The notes under the pieces were generated by a model. The model had not been told where the DNA came from and made no database searches. It was given only the letters and a program-made list of their open reading frames with translations. The position numbers were made by a program, and so were the translations under genes. A stretch of 7,662 nt of DNA from a virus (lineage: Duplodnaviria; Heunggongvirae; Uroviricota; Caudoviricetes). The stretch is taken from IMG/VR virus record IMGVR_UViG_2690316224_000006. One strand, written 5' to 3'. This document shows, in pieces, positions 1,228-7,662 of this stretch (position 1 is the first letter of the stretch; the number at the start of each line of letters is the position of its first letter).

Positions 1228-1980
1228 CTATCTTGTCACTTTTCTCAATTGCGATTCAGCATACGCTTCTTCCTGCCAGCACTTTGTAACCAGTTTATTA
1301 ATAACGTCTGCATATCCTTTGTACCACTGATAATCCGTCAGGTCCGGTACCAGTTTCTGGACATGATGCCGCGCCAGTGTGGTTGGTAAACGGCTAAACC
1401 GGTTGCCATTGCAACGCCCACAAATCTTATAAACAGGCACACCATGAAGCCGGGTTCTTTTTTCATCCAGGACAATACCTTTACCCTTACACCCTCTGCA
1501 CGCTGTGCTGACTTCTCCCTTACCATGGCAATGCTGACATAGTTCCTTCACCCACTCTTCCTTGATAACAGATTCCCCGCTTCTGGAGTGTTTCACCACT
1601 TCGCGCAATACATTATGAAATCCAGTACCAGCACAATGCTCACAGCGAGCCTTACTTGCCGCAGACCTGGAATAATCAGCAAAGGCAAAATTCACAAGGT
1701 AAGGGATGATCTGTAACCGGGTTTCTTCACTCAATTTGTTCAATGTCGGGTTATCCAGTGCCATCGCGTAATTGAGCAGACCTTCAATCGCAAATTGAGG
1801 ATCCTGAACACCAACTTTTGCCAGGAATAAGGCAAACCCAAGCGGTGCTTTCGACTGCACCATCCCCTGCGCAGCCATCACATCCGTAATCGTTAAACCA
1901 CCTGAGCCTGTCACCGGTGCGTCATCGCTCAATTTTGGAGATTTTGGGGAGTAATATTTTGGTAAGGCTTCAAGGTTCAT
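1228..1980 (-). CDS. late-gene antitermination protein Q (250 aa, lambdoid Q family with a Cys-rich zinc-binding region)
   Basis: ATG at 1980 is preceded by GGAGAACGAGC (SD). The ORF track's longer form begins at an upstream GTG at 2022. The N-terminus MNLEALPKYYSPKSPKLSDDAPVTGSGG... is recognised from memory as a prophage Q antiterminator. It contains four CxxCxGxx-type cysteine pairs (CEHCAGTG, CQHCHGKG, CRGCKGKG, CGRCNGNR). Synteny supports the call: rusA ... DUF968, Q, then a terminator. Confidence 0.8.
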   Translation of the reverse strand: MNLEALPKYYSPKSPKLSDDAPVTGSGGLTITDVMAAQGMVQSKAPLGFALFLAKVGVQDPQFAIEGLLNYAMALDNPTLNKLSEETRLQIIPYLVNFAFADYSRSAASKARCEHCAGTGFHNVLREVVKHSRSGESVIKEEWVKELCQHCHGKGEVSTACRGCKGKGIVLDEKRTRLHGVPVYKICGRCNGNRFSRLPTTLARHHVQKLVPDLTDYQWYKGYADVINKLVTKCWQEEAYAESQLRKVTR

Positions 1981-1993
1981 GCTCGTTCTCCAC

Positions 1994-2989
1994 TTACGCC
2001 AGTACGCCAATTGCCAGCGCACGATCGATAAAACGAAATATCAGCTCCAGCTGGGAGCCATACTTCTCTTCAAATGCCACGGTATCCGCATGCAGCTCGT
2101 CGTGATGCTTTCTGCACAAAGGCAACACAAAGAGGTCATGCGCTTTTGTACCCATTCCCCTCTGACCGTGACCTATCAGGTGGTGGGGATCATCAGCAGG
2201 CTTTCCACAACATGCACACGGCTGTGTCTTAACCCAGCGCGTGTACTTTTCATTAACCCAGCGGCGGCGTTTTGGGCGTAACATAAAAGACTCCGGCGAC
2301 TCCGGATCCACTTTCAGCGCCAGCACCTTTTTTGCCTTATCCTGGATGATGCTGGTGGCAGGAACCGAAGGCACAAGGTCACTTTCCCGGGTGACAGACG
2401 GCACAACAGGCTTTGGTAATCTCAGTGCCTTACGGGCTGCACTTTCCGGTAAGGCATCCGCCAGGTCATTACGAATCAGCCACCAGCACAGTTCCGGCAT
2501 TGTCACAACGTGACTATCATCAAAACCGAGATCCCGACGCACAACAGACAACACCCAGCGGGCACAGTTATCCGTTGCCATTGATTCCAGCCGTTCCGTG
2601 AACTGATCGCGCAGCTGGTTATCGCAGTGCCAGCACAGACGGATTGCGCCCGGAGCGTGTCGCATTGTGGTCATGTTCTCGCTGTGCCAGTCGGAATGAG
2701 GCCACTGGCAGCCTTTTTCACGACGTAACCAGCTTTCAAGACATTCCACGCCACCAGCACGACGGATCACTGCCTCATTGCGGAACACGGCCCGAACGGC
2801 AGGATCATCCGCCAGCGGTTGTGATGCCGCCGGAACGGCACCACTGGCGAAAGATGAATAACGTTCCGGCTCAGGCTCCAGCAGAACACGCCCCTGCATA
2901 AACAGGGGCATCAGCTCTGAACCTGGCCTGAACAATACGATCCCCATACGCGGGGCAATTTCAGGGGTCAGTAGTGCTCTCACGGTCAC
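1994..2989 (-). CDS. DUF968-family phage protein with a C-terminal HNH-like Cys/His motif (start uncertain; GTG at 2989 or an internal ATG)
   Basis: A 331-aa ORF directly upstream of Q, as in Qin-type prophages where a DUF968 gene precedes Q. The C-terminus CACCGKPADDPHHLIGHGQRGMGTKAHDLFVLPLCRKHHDELH resembles an HNH / zinc-finger nuclease motif. The annotated start codon is GTG, adjacent to the KilA-N stop, and no strong SD is seen for any candidate start. Confidence 0.65.
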   Translation of the reverse strand: MTVRALLTPEIAPRMGIVLFRPGSELMPLFMQGRVLLEPEPERYSSFASGAVPAASQPLADDPAVRAVFRNEAVIRRAGGVECLESWLRREKGCQWPHSDWHSENMTTMRHAPGAIRLCWHCDNQLRDQFTERLESMATDNCARWVLSVVRRDLGFDDSHVVTMPELCWWLIRNDLADALPESAARKALRLPKPVVPSVTRESDLVPSVPATSIIQDKAKKVLALKVDPESPESFMLRPKRRRWVNEKYTRWVKTQPCACCGKPADDPHHLIGHGQRGMGTKAHDLFVLPLCRKHHDELHADTVAFEEKYGSQLELIFRFIDRALAIGVLA

Positions 2990-2990
2990 C

Positions 2991-3800
2991 TCAATGAACG
3001 GTATCGAGCAGCTTTAACAGCTCAGGGAATCGGGATTCGAAGAAATGCGGCTGCGTCTCGCGCGGATTTGCAGGACTGGTGATGTTCTTGCCGAACATGC
3101 AGCCTTTCGCCGTCAGCGACCAGAATTTTTTGATGTTGTTAATCGCGGTACGGCTGTATCGTTCGCGTTGTTCAACGATCCCCAGCTTCACCATCTGGTG
3201 ATATGCCTGATTAGCCGTCAGGCGGATACCATACTGCTTCAGCAGTGCACTCAGCGACAGCGTGGGGCGACTTGAGCCATCAGGCGCGTCAGCAGGAGCA
3301 TCAATGGCATAGCGCGGTGCCAGATTCGGTAAGCCAACAGCCTCCTGAAGCTTCTGACAGGCTCCAAGCACTGATGAGTTAGACAGATTTAATTCCCGGC
3401 GCATAAAGTCCAGCAGGATCACGCCAGCCTGCATCTTGTCAGCAGCCTGTCCGGATAATTTTTCCGGTGCGCTGGTTACCATGTCGAAAGTACGGATCAC
3501 CTTCAGATGGAATGACGGGCTGATCCACATTGCATAGGCATACACCAGTTCTTTGCAGACATACGTCCCCTGGTTATTTCCGCCATTAATGACGCTAACT
3601 GGTTGATTTTGTTCCAGAGGCGGAATTCCACCCTCGGTGAAAAGTTGTTCAATCAATTCACAGGTTTGCTTATTGGAGAGCCAGTATTTCGGGCGGTTTT
3701 TTTGTTCTCCCCCGGCTGCCCTGTGCAGATCGTTCAGGCTGTAACGCCCATAAGCATCACGACGAACTTCAATACCATCAATGACCATCAGATTATTCAT
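2991..3800 (-). CDS. KilA-N domain protein (antirepressor-like, two-domain; 269 aa)
   Basis: ATG at 3800 is preceded by AGGAGAAACGAAGT (strong SD). The longer ORF-track form to 3848 is unlikely. The N-terminus MNNLMVIDGIEVRRDAYGRYSLNDLHRAAGG...PKYWL fits the KilA-N DNA-binding domain pattern. The C-terminal roughly 150 aa are unassigned. Confidence 0.75.
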   Translation of the reverse strand: MNNLMVIDGIEVRRDAYGRYSLNDLHRAAGGEQKNRPKYWLSNKQTCELIEQLFTEGGIPPLEQNQPVSVINGGNNQGTYVCKELVYAYAMWISPSFHLKVIRTFDMVTSAPEKLSGQAADKMQAGVILLDFMRRELNLSNSSVLGACQKLQEAVGLPNLAPRYAIDAPADAPDGSSRPTLSLSALLKQYGIRLTANQAYHQMVKLGIVEQRERYSRTAINNIKKFWSLTAKGCMFGKNITSPANPRETQPHFFESRFPELLKLLDTVH

Positions 3801-3819
3801 ACTTCGTTTCTCCTCTTGA

Positions 3820-4209
3820 TCAGGCGGCTGCACCCGCCGGTTTCTCATACTTACTGATAGTGATCTCGACCTTCCCTTTCTGGATAACCGGTCCCCACTC
3901 CACCAGCATTCTTTTCACCTGGCTGTCGTCTTCCCACACCCCCGCGTGGGTCAGGGCGTCAAACAGCGCCTTGTTATAGTTGTCCAGATCGCGGATCCGG
4001 TTATCCGGAGGAAACAACACGATCTCCACTGAAGCAGGTGCCGACGTTGGTTTTGGCAGACGACGTAACTGCTCAACTATTGCTGCGCACGCCGCGCTCT
4101 GGAATTTGCGCCCCGCCGCGCTTATCAGGCTTTTACCAGCAAACGCCCCTTTATTAGGGTGTCGCCAGTACGTATTCACGCTGGGCGGGAAAGGTAGGAT
4201 CAGTTTCAT
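3820..4209 (-). CDS. rusA: RusA-family Holliday junction resolvase (crossover junction endodeoxyribonuclease)
   Basis: The 129-aa protein MKLILPFPPSVNTYWRH...RDLDNYNKALFDALTHAGVWEDDSQV matches the RusA family in length and in conserved acidic motifs (DLDN, D-x-L). The ATG at 4209 overlaps the upstream stop (ATGA). Confidence 0.9.
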   Translation of the reverse strand: MKLILPFPPSVNTYWRHPNKGAFAGKSLISAAGRKFQSAACAAIVEQLRRLPKPTSAPASVEIVLFPPDNRIRDLDNYNKALFDALTHAGVWEDDSQVKRMLVEWGPVIQKGKVEITISKYEKPAGAAA

Positions 4210-4532
4210 ACTTTCAGGCCTCTCTCATGTAACCAGTGGGTGGCACGCAGCCTGGCGTTTTCCTCACCGGCAAGCAGTGAGCGGATAATCCCGACCGCCT
4301 CGCTGTCATCGTCCTTCACCGCGGTATGAAGCGTTATCCCCCGGGCCACGCCACGCTTTATCGTGATGACGCCTTTTTTCTCCAGTGCGCGAAGATGCTC
4401 CACCGCTGCATTCACTGAACGGTATCCCAGCATGGTTGCCACCTCCTGATTGGTTGGCGGGAAGCCACGTTCTTTCTGGTAAGAAATCAGCATATCCAGC
4501 ACCTGCTGCTGGCATTGAGTTAACGTCGTCAT
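4206..4532 (-). CDS. LexA N-terminal DNA-binding-domain protein (108 aa) lacking the S24 peptidase / dimerisation domain
   Basis: MTTLTQCQQQVLDMLISYQKERGFPPTNQEVATMLGYRSVNAAVEHLRALEKKGVITIKRGVARGITL aligns nearly residue-for-residue in pattern with the LexA winged-helix DNA-binding domain (PPT...E.A..LG.RS.NAA.EHL.AL..KGVI.I..G..RGI.L). The protein ends about 40 aa later, with no Ser/Lys protease domain. Start and stop both form ATGA overlaps with neighbouring genes. Confidence 0.8.
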   Translation of the reverse strand: MTTLTQCQQQVLDMLISYQKERGFPPTNQEVATMLGYRSVNAAVEHLRALEKKGVITIKRGVARGITLHTAVKDDDSEAVGIIRSLLAGEENARLRATHWLHERGLKV

Positions 4533-5182
4533 GCCGCCATCTCCCTGACCAGTTTTTCCGCCTGCTGGCGAACCTGCACCAGAAAGGCTTCACCACATGC
4601 CTCAAGTTCATCGCGCCCGATGTAGCTGATTGCCGGTCCCTTCCAGGTCTTGTCGAAAACAGCAATAGCACCAGCGAAGAAAGCGCCTGTCGGCACCTGC
4701 TTCTCATCCTTCGGGATAAACCAGGCAGGCAGTTCAAAACCAATACGCCCGCGAATAAAAGCAATATGGTCCGCATCTTCCGGCCACCACACTTCGCTGG
4801 TGGCAGCTTTGATCAGGAAAACATAGCGCCCGCCCTTATCACGCATGGCACTGGCATGTTTCATGATGTAACGCATGCCGGTGATGTATTGCCCCTCATG
4901 CTGACTGGCGCGGCTGTATGGGGGATTACCAAAGGCAGCACCTTTAAGCTCCGCAAGACGTTCTGACCAGTCATGCGCCAGCGCGTTATCTTCCGCCGTG
5001 TAATACGCGGCACATTTGGCGTTATCACCGTCAGTAAACAGATCCAGAACAAACGGGCCAAACAGGGTGTTAATTCCCCAGAAAATGTTGTCCGGCGTGC
5101 GCCACTGATCGCCCACTTCCTTCAGTTCATGGGCTGGTTTGTTCCGCAGTTCCACCAGCGCCTGGCAATATTTATTACTCAT
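4529..5182 (-). CDS. phage-type DNA N6-adenine methyltransferase (Dam family, orphan; 217 aa)
   Basis: The catalytic motif NPPY (FGNPPYS) is encoded at 4916-4927. An upstream W-R-T-P motif and the overall size match the phage Dam family. The ATG at 5182 overlaps the upstream TAA (TAATG). The ORF-track form to 5215 starts further upstream and is less likely. Confidence 0.85.
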   Translation of the reverse strand: MSNKYCQALVELRNKPAHELKEVGDQWRTPDNIFWGINTLFGPFVLDLFTDGDNAKCAAYYTAEDNALAHDWSERLAELKGAAFGNPPYSRASQHEGQYITGMRYIMKHASAMRDKGGRYVFLIKAATSEVWWPEDADHIAFIRGRIGFELPAWFIPKDEKQVPTGAFFAGAIAVFDKTWKGPAISYIGRDELEACGEAFLVQVRQQAEKLVREMAA

Positions 5183-5670
5183 TAAGCCCCCACGTAATTC
5201 CCTGACAGATACCACTCTTCACCCGATGCAGCGCGCTTGCTGCTTTTCCGTAAGCACCGCTCACGACGCGCCAGAAAATTGTTTCGTTCTGGCTGGGAGT
5301 GGCTTTCACGGAATGCCGCCATCCACACGGTTGCAGCACGACGGTATAAGCCCCTGGACTCCAGTTCTTCAGCCTGGCGGATCAGGCACAAAATCACCCG
5401 TGGATCGTTAGTGCCGACATAGAAATTGCGCACAGGTCTGGTTTCTCGAACTGGTTGTGGTTCCGGTTCCTGCGCTCTCTCAGTCAGGCGCGGGAAATGT
5501 CTGCGTGTATCTCCTTCACAACGGTGAGCCACACGCCCACTCTGACGTAACTTGCTTGCTGACTGCAGAACGCGCTGCCGTGAGTAACCTGCAAAAGCAT
5601 CCGCAATGTCTCCGGAAGTACACCCCGGATGGGCTTCAATGAATTTCTGAACTTCATTCAAAAGACTCAT
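5182..5670 (-). CDS. putative PerC-family-like transcriptional regulator with an N-terminal winged-helix-like extension (162 aa)
   Basis: ATG at 5670 is preceded by AGGGGGTGATC (SD-like) and lies 2 nt after the upstream TGA. The C-terminal segment LESRGLYRRAATVWMAAF...RRERCLRK resembles the PerC/Pch conserved core as remembered. The N-terminal 60 aa look like a small HTH, joined by a Pro/Glu-rich linker. The family call is from memory only. Confidence 0.45.
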   Translation of the reverse strand: MSLLNEVQKFIEAHPGCTSGDIADAFAGYSRQRVLQSASKLRQSGRVAHRCEGDTRRHFPRLTERAQEPEPQPVRETRPVRNFYVGTNDPRVILCLIRQAEELESRGLYRRAATVWMAAFRESHSQPERNNFLARRERCLRKSSKRAASGEEWYLSGNYVGA

Positions 5671-5672
5671 GA

Positions 5673-6089
5673 TCACCCCCTGAATCCTGCCGGGATCTGG
5701 CTGTAGTCCACGTTGTCGTAACTGGCTTTGAAGTACGGGTCCTCACGTCTGGCTGCAGATACCGCAGGAACTTCCCAGGATTCTTCGAAATGACGATCCG
5801 GACCAAAGAACGTGACAGCCTGTTTCACAAATTGTGTGCCGCTGTTACCCATCGCAGATACCCAGCCCGCGTAGCGTTTCACACCTTCCAGCATGGTTTC
5901 GGGGTTTACCCCCTCATTCAAACGGGCTTTCCAGGCTTTGAAGGCTGCAGATTTTGAATTGCCACCAGCACGTTTGGGATATACCAGCCATGCCTGCTCA
6001 AACTCCGGAGAGTATTCCGGTCGGTTTGAACGAACTCGCACGGACTCATCAACTGATGCACCAACAGCTATTGGTTCATTGACTGGTTC
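5673..6089 (-). CDS. replication initiation protein, C-terminal part (same gene as 6098-6696; broken by an assembly gap and duplicated flank)
   Basis: The open frame runs from the gap to TGA at 5673-5675. Its first 38 aa (RVRSNRPEYSPEFEQAWLVYPKRAGG...NPET) repeat the last residues of the upstream fragment, so the two fragments join in frame if one 197-bp copy plus the Ns is removed, giving about 272 aa in total. Confidence 0.6.
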   Translation of the reverse strand, partial: EPVNEPIAVGASVDESVRVRSNRPEYSPEFEQAWLVYPKRAGGNSKSAAFKAWKARLNEGVNPETMLEGVKRYAGWVSAMGNSGTQFVKQAVTFFGPDRHFEESWEVPAVSAARREDPYFKASYDNVDYSQIPAGFRG

Positions 6090-6294
6090 NNNNNNNNATG
6101 GTTTCGGGGTTTACCCCCTCATTCAAACGGGCTTTCCAGGCTTTGAAGGCTGCAGATTTTGAATTACCACCAGCACGTTTGGGATATGCCAGCCATGCCT
6201 GCTCAAACTCCGGAGAGTATTCCGGCCGGTTTGAACGAACTCGCACGGACTCATCAACTGATGCACCAACAGCTATTGGTTCATTGACTGGTTC
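5893..6294. repeat. 197-bp direct duplication (5893-6089 and 6098-6294, 3 mismatches) flanking an 8-N gap; probable scaffold-join artifact
   Basis: Directly read: the two copies are identical except for three substitutions (g/a, a/g, t/c). The N run at 6090-6097 separates them. Both copies encode the same peptide, with one V/A difference. Confidence 0.9.
6090..6097. other. assembly gap (NNNNNNNN)
   Basis: Eight ambiguous bases inside a coding region. Confidence 0.95.
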
Positions 6295-6696
6295 TTTGAC
6301 TGGTTCAAAAGAGTGACTGGTTCTGGGTGAATCTCCTGCACTACCCCCTGGTGCAACTCCTGCACTACCTGGTGAATTTGCTGCACCAGATAGTGAATTA
6401 TTTGCACTACCCCCTAGTGAATCTCCTGCACCATCCAGATGAAGGAGATAGATATTACTTGAGTTACCTTTTTCACCTTTCCGGGTGACTTTTTTTACCA
6501 GCCCGGACTCACAAAGGGCCGCAATATGATTCATCACAGAACGTTTGCTAATCTCGCACTGGTCAGCAATATGCTGGTAGCTGGGCCAGCACTCACCCTG
6601 ATCGCTGGCATTATCAGCCAGCTTGATCAGAACCAGTTTTCGCAATGGATTACCCACTCGAATTTTCATCGCTTTAACCATCAGCTCCATACTCAT
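6098..6696 (-). CDS. replication initiation protein, N-terminal part (HTH domain plus Gly/Ser/Ala-rich linker), O-like initiator
   Basis: ATG at 6696 is preceded by GGAGGTGCAGC (SD) and overlaps the upstream stop (ATGA). The N-terminus LRKLVLIKLADNASDQGECWPSYQHIADQCEISKRSVMNHIAALCESGLVKK is a typical phage replication-protein HTH of the HTH_36 type. The ORF-track stop at 6076 is an artifact of reading through the Ns. Confidence 0.65.
6285..6431. repeat. iteron-like short direct repeats inside the replication-initiator linker region (candidate origin)
   Basis: TGACTGGTTC occurs at 6285-6294, 6297-6306 and 6314-6323, and again at 6080-6089 in the duplicated copy. GTGAATCTCCTGCAC occurs at 6327-6341 and 6417-6431. 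The motif TGCACTACC(CCCT) recurs at about 6337, 6361 and 6403. A moderately AT-rich stretch follows at about 6440-6480. Confidence 0.35.
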
Positions 6697-6929
6697 GCTG
6701 CACCTCCGAGATGCTTCATGTTTTTTCCGGAGCGAAAGGCTATAAGCGGCATACTGACGCGGTAATTACGGCCAAGCGGTTCACAAATCACCTTCTGGCA
6801 TTCACGGTCAACCAGGCTAACACGTAGAACATGCCCTGCAGGTGTGGTGTACCACTGCCCAACTGTAGGAATTGATATTTTTTTACGCTGAAGTAAACGG
6901 TGAATATTGAGGATCAACGGATTAAGCAT
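6693..6929 (-). CDS. small phage protein, DUF4222-like (78 aa)
   Basis: ATG at 6929 is preceded by GGAGGGCATCGTC (SD) and overlaps the upstream gene by 8 nt. Its stop overlaps the replication gene start (ATGA). The pattern G..Y....G..L.V...(9)...V...(5)...G..Y..S.P...F resembles small prophage DUF4222 proteins as remembered. Confidence 0.5.
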   Translation of the reverse strand: MLNPLILNIHRLLQRKKISIPTVGQWYTTPAGHVLRVSLVDRECQKVICEPLGRNYRVSMPLIAFRSGKNMKHLGGAA

Positions 6930-7566
6930 GACGATGCCCTCCGCTGATATTCAGGAGACGGTGAATATGAAGATTAGCCTTATCCGCCAAACGAATACGT
7001 TCAGCCTGCAAGTTAAGAAGGGTTTCTACCAGAAGTTGATGCGCCTGCGGATCTGAAAGAGTTACCTTGCGCAGAGCACGTAGTGCTGTTGTTACATAAC
7101 TGAGTTTATGTAAGTCTTCATCATTCAGACGAGTGAGGGCTGGGACAGTAGCCATGATGGCAGCCTCCTTGATCGGTGAAATACTTCCACCACCGGAAAC
7201 GCCAATTTCGCTGGTGGTGAACTGAACGGGGTTGGCGTAACCGGTGATCAAGGAAACCGGCGCATCTTTCGATGCCCCCGCCCAGCCCACCATAACTTTG
7301 ATGTGAGCAAATGCGGACGATAAAAAAGACGCTGGCGCGTCATATATCGCCTTGATCAATTCCAGGACGCCAATCCCGGCACCCGCTTTATAAGGTGCCT
7401 GAACAGTGTAACGTCCCGGAATGGCAGAATCAATGTGCTGGTGGTCCTTCACACTCAACAAAATCACGCCTGAATTTCCACAAAGGACTAAAGCACTCAT
7501 GCGGGTAGTCTTTGCGAAGATAGATAACGCGCTGTGTTTCTGGCTCCCAACGAATAACATGAACAT
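6922..7566 (-). CDS. hypothetical phage early protein (214 aa from ATG at 7566; the ORF extends to GTG at 7623); possible Rossmann-like fold
   Basis: A long minus-strand ORF in the same operon. The ATG at 7566 is preceded by GAAGAGGACTTT (SD, about 5 nt spacing), while the GTG at 7623 has no SD. Gly-rich loops (KAGAGIGV, GVSGGGSIS) and a PVSLITGYA segment give a weak resemblance to DprA/SLOG-type nucleotide-binding folds. No confident family assignment. Confidence 0.5.
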   Translation of the reverse strand: MFMLFVGSQKHSALSIFAKTTRMSALVLCGNSGVILLSVKDHQHIDSAIPGRYTVQAPYKAGAGIGVLELIKAIYDAPASFLSSAFAHIKVMVGWAGASKDAPVSLITGYANPVQFTTSEIGVSGGGSISPIKEAAIMATVPALTRLNDEDLHKLSYVTTALRALRKVTLSDPQAHQLLVETLLNLQAERIRLADKANLHIHRLLNISGGHRHA

Positions 7567-7662
7567 AAAGTCCTCTTCCGTCACTAAACCAGCGGTTAAG
7601 TTCCTGCACAACTCGCCCCCCACAGTCAGGTAAAGTTCTCTGTGGTTACTTACAGCCAGGTG

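Follow-up and report, generated by a model that had tools for sequence, protein, structure and literature searches.

An apparent 197-nt duplication in a lambdoid prophage replication-initiator gene is very probably an assembly artefact

The window analysed in this work is a 7662-nt stretch of a Caudoviricetes record in the IMG/VR database (IMGVR_UViG_2690316224_000006), in which a 197-nt segment of a phage replication-initiator gene is written twice, with a short run of Ns between the two copies. Judged from comparison with related sequences, this duplication is very probably an artefact of assembly that stands for one real copy. The feature is an un-collapsed overlap, neither a tandem duplication nor a biological element, and the underlying gene is intact, a replication initiator of the ordinary lambdoid kind. 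Three properties that mark a false duplication were found at this locus, with the gap lying directly between the copies, the copies corresponding to two real alleles, and the segment occurring as a single copy in finished relatives. A real duplication would have borders that are independent of the mutations and differences that are new, whereas here the borders are symmetric about the SNPs and the alleles are pre-existing. Nothing at the locus is biologically unusual.

The two copies, the gap and the split gene

The eight Ns are the sole ambiguous bases in the window, and the segments that flank them (copy A and copy B, Table 1) align without gaps over 197 nt each at 98.5% identity. Tandem Repeats Finder reported the pair at a period of 205. 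Chance is excluded by a wide margin as the source of a 197-nt repeat at this identity within a 7.6-kb window. The copies differ at three positions, all of them transitions (5961 G and 6166 A; 5983 A and 6188 G; 6021 T and 6226 C). When read as minus-strand codons, the pair 5961/6166 (GGC/GGT, Gly) and the pair 6021/6226 (CGA/CGG, Arg) are silent, while 5983/6188 (GTA/GCA) exchanges Val for Ala. The repeat could not be extended in either direction, with unique sequence before copy A and Ns after it, and Ns before copy B and unique sequence after it. This layout is the geometry of two overlapping contig ends. The window alignment and the codon reading agree in all details with the initial annotation of the window, which had described eight Ns, 197-bp flanks and three differences including a V/A change.

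Table 1. Coordinates of the features discussed in the text; positions are those of the window except for the AR434 loci.
Feature	Position	Strand or record	Description
Phage replication-initiator gene	5673..6696	-	HTH_36 / DnaD_N N-terminal domain; yfdO / SfV orf39 / 'O-like' type
Copy A	5893-6089		Left contig's final 197 nt; G/A/T at 5961/5983/6021; minus-strand Val codon GTA
Scaffold gap, 8 N	6090-6097		Exactly between the copies
Copy B	6098-6294		Right contig's opening 197 nt; A/G/C at 6166/6188/6226; minus-strand Ala codon GCA
12-nt tandem unit TGGTTCATTGAC	6277..6307		2.6 copies; encodes EPVN/EPVK repeats
AR434 prophage loci L124 and L125	4570363-4576559 and 4205343-4211539	NZ_CP029122.1	Alleles GAT and GGT

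As written, the initiator gene carries 205 extra bases and is split into an open reading frame (ORF) of 206 aa that enters the Ns (6076..6696) and a second ORF of 122 aa (5673..6041), which bears out the earlier warning that the gene models in this region are unreliable. Removal of one copy together with the Ns (205 nt) gave one unbroken minus-strand ORF of 272 aa, whichever copy was retained, and the true gene is 819 nt in length (272 aa and a stop). Neither 197 nor 205 is divisible by three, so that a real insertion would cause a frameshift and leave a 206-aa stump. The collapsed protein matched Pfam HTH_36 (1.8e-11, 44.1 bits, cutoff 25), and its match to DnaD_N, at 24.3 bits, fell under the cutoff of 27 for that family. 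Residues 3-271 of the collapsed protein aligned to phrog_270, annotated as 'replication initiation protein', in a colinear single stretch (E 1.7e-88). In closed Escherichia coli genomes this gene is annotated as a single 819-nt CDS, and in the phages SfV, mEp460 and Ayreon the gene is annotated 'replication protein'. The neighbouring genes, all on the minus strand, comprise ash/Rha-like, a small ORF, the initiator, PerC, Dam methylase, LexA-like, RusA, KilA-N, DUF968 and antiterminator Q, which is the usual lambdoid early-right block.

The initiator gene contains two further sets of repeats. The number of TGGTTCATTGAC units varied across more than 120 related loci, from one unit fewer than in the window to two units more. 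Between 6327 and 6431, about 4.6 imperfect direct repeats of 21-24 nt (consensus GTGAATCTCCTGCACTACCCCCTA) encode a low-complexity Gly/Ser/Ala linker. This array looks like an iteron array and, if it consists of iterons, would presumably represent a phage origin embedded in the initiator gene, as in lambda O. In six of the Logan and ENA assemblies (L126-L130 and L132), an N-terminal piece of 66-142 aa carrying HTH_36 was accompanied by the identical 122-aa C-terminal ORF; the gene is called there as two pieces and is thus interrupted within the repeat-rich linker, which may reflect true frameshifts, pseudogenes or errors of assembly in the putative iteron region.

Copy number and alleles in relatives

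The region 5400-6900 of the window (1501 nt) had matches in 881 closed E. coli records at 80% or more of the query length, the best of them at 99.6% identity, these finished genomes being relatives of the source of the window and not the same isolate. Among the matches listed, those of full length spanned 1294-1296 nt, which is the query minus 205. Phage records were likewise shorter by 205 over this region (Stx2c phages, Ayreon, SfV and mEp460), and the whole 7662-nt window corresponded to 7456-7457 nt in relatives. When placed on one such relative (L001), the left contig (1-6089) covered 1501-7588 and the right contig (6098-7662) covered 7392-8956, so that the two overlapped by exactly 197 nt. 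In the closed relatives nothing lies between the two contig ends. The core of the repeat was present once in each of 123 related loci (120 from IMG/VR and three from closed genomes) and once in all ten loci that were added later.

The tandem junction was also searched for directly. An N-free tandem junction was not found in IMG/VR, and across 5,426 complete E. coli genomes a 70-nt junction query yielded nothing at E<=1e-13, a threshold that only a contiguous match could pass; both searches presuppose that no unknown sequence lies between the copies. At a loose E-value the matches listed were all in two pieces, with the halves of the query on both ends of a single copy. The junction with its Ns treated as wildcards likewise had no match in IMG/VR, and an 80-nt IUPAC pattern matching either allele had none in the GTDB species-representative genomes. 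An exact-protein look-up of the 122-aa fragment returned ten contigs, none of which had an N gap or two copies and none of which was identical to the window.

Each of the two copies occurs in nature. Exact matches (100% identity) exist to copy A in many closed E. coli genomes and to copy B in five, including ETEC1721. When the three variable sites were read as haplotypes across the 123 related loci, GGT was found in 83, GAT (copy A) in 33, AGC (copy B) in six and AGT in one. Both copies are exact natural alleles, and three mutations arising after a duplication would not be expected to recreate an allele that already exists. The 197-mer occurs at 993 places in 920 closed genomes, an excess of about 7%, indicating that two copies per genome is the minority case.

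The possibility that the gap conceals an insertion sequence or another element, and that the repeat is its target-site duplication, was considered and rejected: 197 nt is too long, the copies are different natural alleles, and nothing separates the contig ends in closed relatives. Target-site duplications range from a few bases to about 14 nt.

Bubble geometry, crossed linkage and rival explanations

Counted along the 197-mer, the three variable sites fall at offsets 69, 91 and 129 and span 61 nt, leaving 68 identical bases outside the outermost SNP on each side. In a de Bruijn graph the length of a bubble arm equals the variant span plus 2(k-1), with unitigs overlapping by k-1, and for k=69 the sum is 61 + 2x68 = 197. 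Both borders are therefore placed k-1 nt beyond the outermost variant by one and the same k. Graphs built at k=69 from L002 (the ETEC1721 prophage, AGC) together with either L099 or L086 (IMG/VR prophages, GAT) contained unitigs string-identical to copy B and copy A, and graphs built from the same prophages at k=31, 55, 99 and 127 did not reproduce the copies. A single k is the best explanation for the equal 68-nt distances, although such symmetry could arise by coincidence in roughly 1 in 70 cases. No polymorphic site coincides with the left border (5892/5893). The right border (6294/6295) is the start of the second TGGTTCATTGAC unit, within the naturally polymorphic 12-nt tandem repeat, and the unrelated IMG/VR contig L017 terminates at exactly this base, so that the right border may have a cause other than k. 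Given that this 12-nt VNTR offers no explanation for the left border, it is retained as a caveat and as a rival only. On this geometry, a bubble at k=69 is the probable mechanism behind the two copies.

Under this mechanism, the read set would have contained two alleles of one stretch of the lambdoid-prophage replication-initiator gene, differing at three sites within 61 nt. These sites would open a bubble in a de Bruijn graph with a contig overlap of 68 nt, each arm being 197 nt in length. The bubble would have been left unmerged and both arms ordered in series, each arm being joined to one flank by the 68-mer shared on that side, arm A on the left and arm B on the right. With the end of A having no overlap to the start of B, a short run of Ns would then have been inserted, whereas the real molecule would hold a single 197-nt copy and an intact 819-nt gene. 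Both the serial placement of the arms and the type of assembler behind the artefact are what we infer from this layout. Where the contigs of an assembler share k-1 bases, an overlap of 68 corresponds to k=69; in SPAdes-type graphs it would need an even k of 68, which is disallowed. The run of eight Ns matches no nameable assembler default, and the naming of a specific assembler was dropped because eight Ns fit no default that could be confirmed.

The flanks of the two copies showed crossed linkage. L002, which carries AGC, matches the window without a difference over 4800-5892 and 6098-6773 and diverges strongly from it from 6774-6877 onward. Of the loci carrying GAT, L004 and L099 show no difference from the window over 6437-7458, where L086 differs solely at 6589. 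Over 5746-6089 L086 and L099 likewise match the window exactly, the sequence of L004 that was compared extending leftward no further than 5911. A mismatch to the window at 6436 is shared by all three, and L086 and L099 have others at 5745 and further left. The union of L002 and L099 contained every 69-mer of 4800-6089 and 6098-7458, and neither locus alone sufficed. The left contig is thus of type 1 and ends in a type-2 tip, and the right contig is of type 2 and begins with a type-1 tip: the left flank, arm B and the sequence to 6773 together form one known prophage type, and arm A with the right flank from 6437 another. Over 5746-5960 and 6437-6773 the ETEC1721-type and the L086/L099-type are identical to each other and to the window, and the switch of type falls within these stretches. 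The switches are either natural mosaic crossover points or jumps of the assembly path between two prophages. The crossed linkage fits a graph walk through two co-resident prophages, and the scaffold may be chimeric, with its left part from one prophage and its right part from another.

We lean towards a second, closely related co-resident prophage as the source of the second allele. A precedent exists in closed E. coli AR434, in which two prophages 365 kb apart each carry the 819-nt gene (Table 1); the pair is 97.6% identical over 3.9 kb, with exact runs of up to 475 nt and the same early-gene order. IMG genome 2909288124 likewise has two UViGs carrying the gene. The earlier suggestion that the genome may carry more than one related prophage fits both the crossed linkage and the AR434 precedent, and can be kept as plausible rather than established. 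The natural recombinant L112 (AGT) resembles both flanks of the window, so that the combination of left and right parts need not be chimeric and the second allele could have originated in a mixed culture. A mixed or heterogeneous sample, comprising two clones or a contaminating strain with a related prophage, would yield the same artefact and is a possible if rather doubtful source of the alleles. Its case is that both alleles are natural and widespread, that genomes with two copies are a minority (993 places in 920 genomes), and that in L112 both window flanks can share one phage; it is countered by the existence of co-resident pairs (AR434 and IMG genome 2909288124) and by the perfect threading of the window through two known prophage types. 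Nothing inside the window discriminates between a mixed sample and a second prophage.

Two explanations depart further from a k=69 bubble. Two contigs may have stayed unmerged owing to the three mismatches in their 197-nt overlap, as in overlap-layout assembly, reference-guided ordering or merged assemblies, in which case the symmetry would be coincidental, the right border would be set by the 12-nt repeat, and there would still be one real copy. The position of the right border at a natural VNTR where L017 also ends, the frequency with which drafts break inside this gene (L131 and L133-L135), and a run of eight Ns that fits no known default all agree with such a history; however, the left border is not a polymorphic site and yet lies 68 nt from the first SNP, mirroring the right border, and the k=69 graph gives both copies base for base, which makes it distinctly unlikely. 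The remaining explanation is a real tandem duplication of about 197 nt in the replication gene, perhaps formed by unequal exchange between the alleles of co-resident prophages, with the Ns as a short unresolved junction. If true, such a heteroallelic partial duplication would knock out the initiator of a now cryptic prophage and lock it in place. The sequence as written does have tandem copies, cryptic prophages tolerate broken replication genes, and the Ns hide the true junction. Against these points, no junction or double copy was found in the 5,426 complete genomes, the 123 loci or the ten later loci, and the junction is absent from IMG/VR; a length of 197 or 205 is not a multiple of three and leads to the 206-aa stump; the copies end at equal distances from the outermost SNPs, which is what a k-mer artefact predicts; and both copies are exact pre-existing alleles. 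Furthermore, a near-identical pair separated by a gap on one scaffold is the published hallmark of a false heterotype duplication (PMC9516828), and here the gap lies exactly between the copies. A real duplication is therefore extremely improbable.

The initial annotation had proposed a scaffold join of contigs with two alleles, which is supported by the 197-nt overlap on relatives, the natural alleles and the restored ORF. Its view that this was not a real tandem duplication agrees with the single copy in relatives and with the absence of the junction from 5,426 genomes and IMG/VR. Its alternative of a collapsed repeat did not hold, as the overlap is un-collapsed, with both bubble arms kept and borders at 68 nt.

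Consequences and comparison with known systems

The replication gene of this record is to be read as one intact 819-nt gene, and the 206-aa and 122-aa fragments, as well as any 'duplication' or 'pseudogene' call, are to be treated as artefacts. The scaffold may bridge two related prophages, being of one type up to about 5745 and of another from about 6774. Prophage boundaries, typing and counts should accordingly not rest on the join. The 68/68 symmetry test, in which the distance from each border to the outermost SNP equals k-1, offers a quick, read-free flag for serialised bubble arms beside N gaps in draft bacterial genomes. Contigs were also observed to break in or beside the replication gene in many independent drafts (L131, L133, L134 and L135 from NCBI; L004, L017, L030 and L056 from IMG/VR), where the distance from the contig start to the 122-aa ORF downstream was 12-285 nt. 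The pattern would fit a gene that, through multiple copies or its repeats, often causes difficulty in short-read assembly.

With respect to known phages, the annotated replication genes of phages with an initiator of the SfV orf39, mEp460 and E. coli yfdO type are 98-99.6% identical in DNA sequence to the collapsed gene of the window, and the gene order of this lambdoid type matches that of the window. Once the 205 extra bases are removed, no difference from the SfV/mEp460/yfdO type remains, only the written gene model being broken. With respect to assembly graphs, bubbles are usually popped or output as separate short contigs. Here, by contrast, the arms of an unmerged de Bruijn bubble would have been fused to opposite flanks and serialised with Ns. 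The closest likeness is to the false heterotype duplications described for genome assemblies (Ko et al. 2022, Genome Biol 23:205, PMC9516828; Rhie et al. 2021, PMC8081667), in which both alleles are kept side by side on one scaffold around a gap, allele-specific k-mers tell the copies apart, and false gene fragments or gains result, as in the window. Those duplications derive from the haplotypes of diploid vertebrates, whereas the present case concerns a haploid bacterium and most likely reflects two related prophages or a mixed sample. The scale differs also, the feature described here being far smaller than its vertebrate counterparts, at 197 nt and a single graph bubble.
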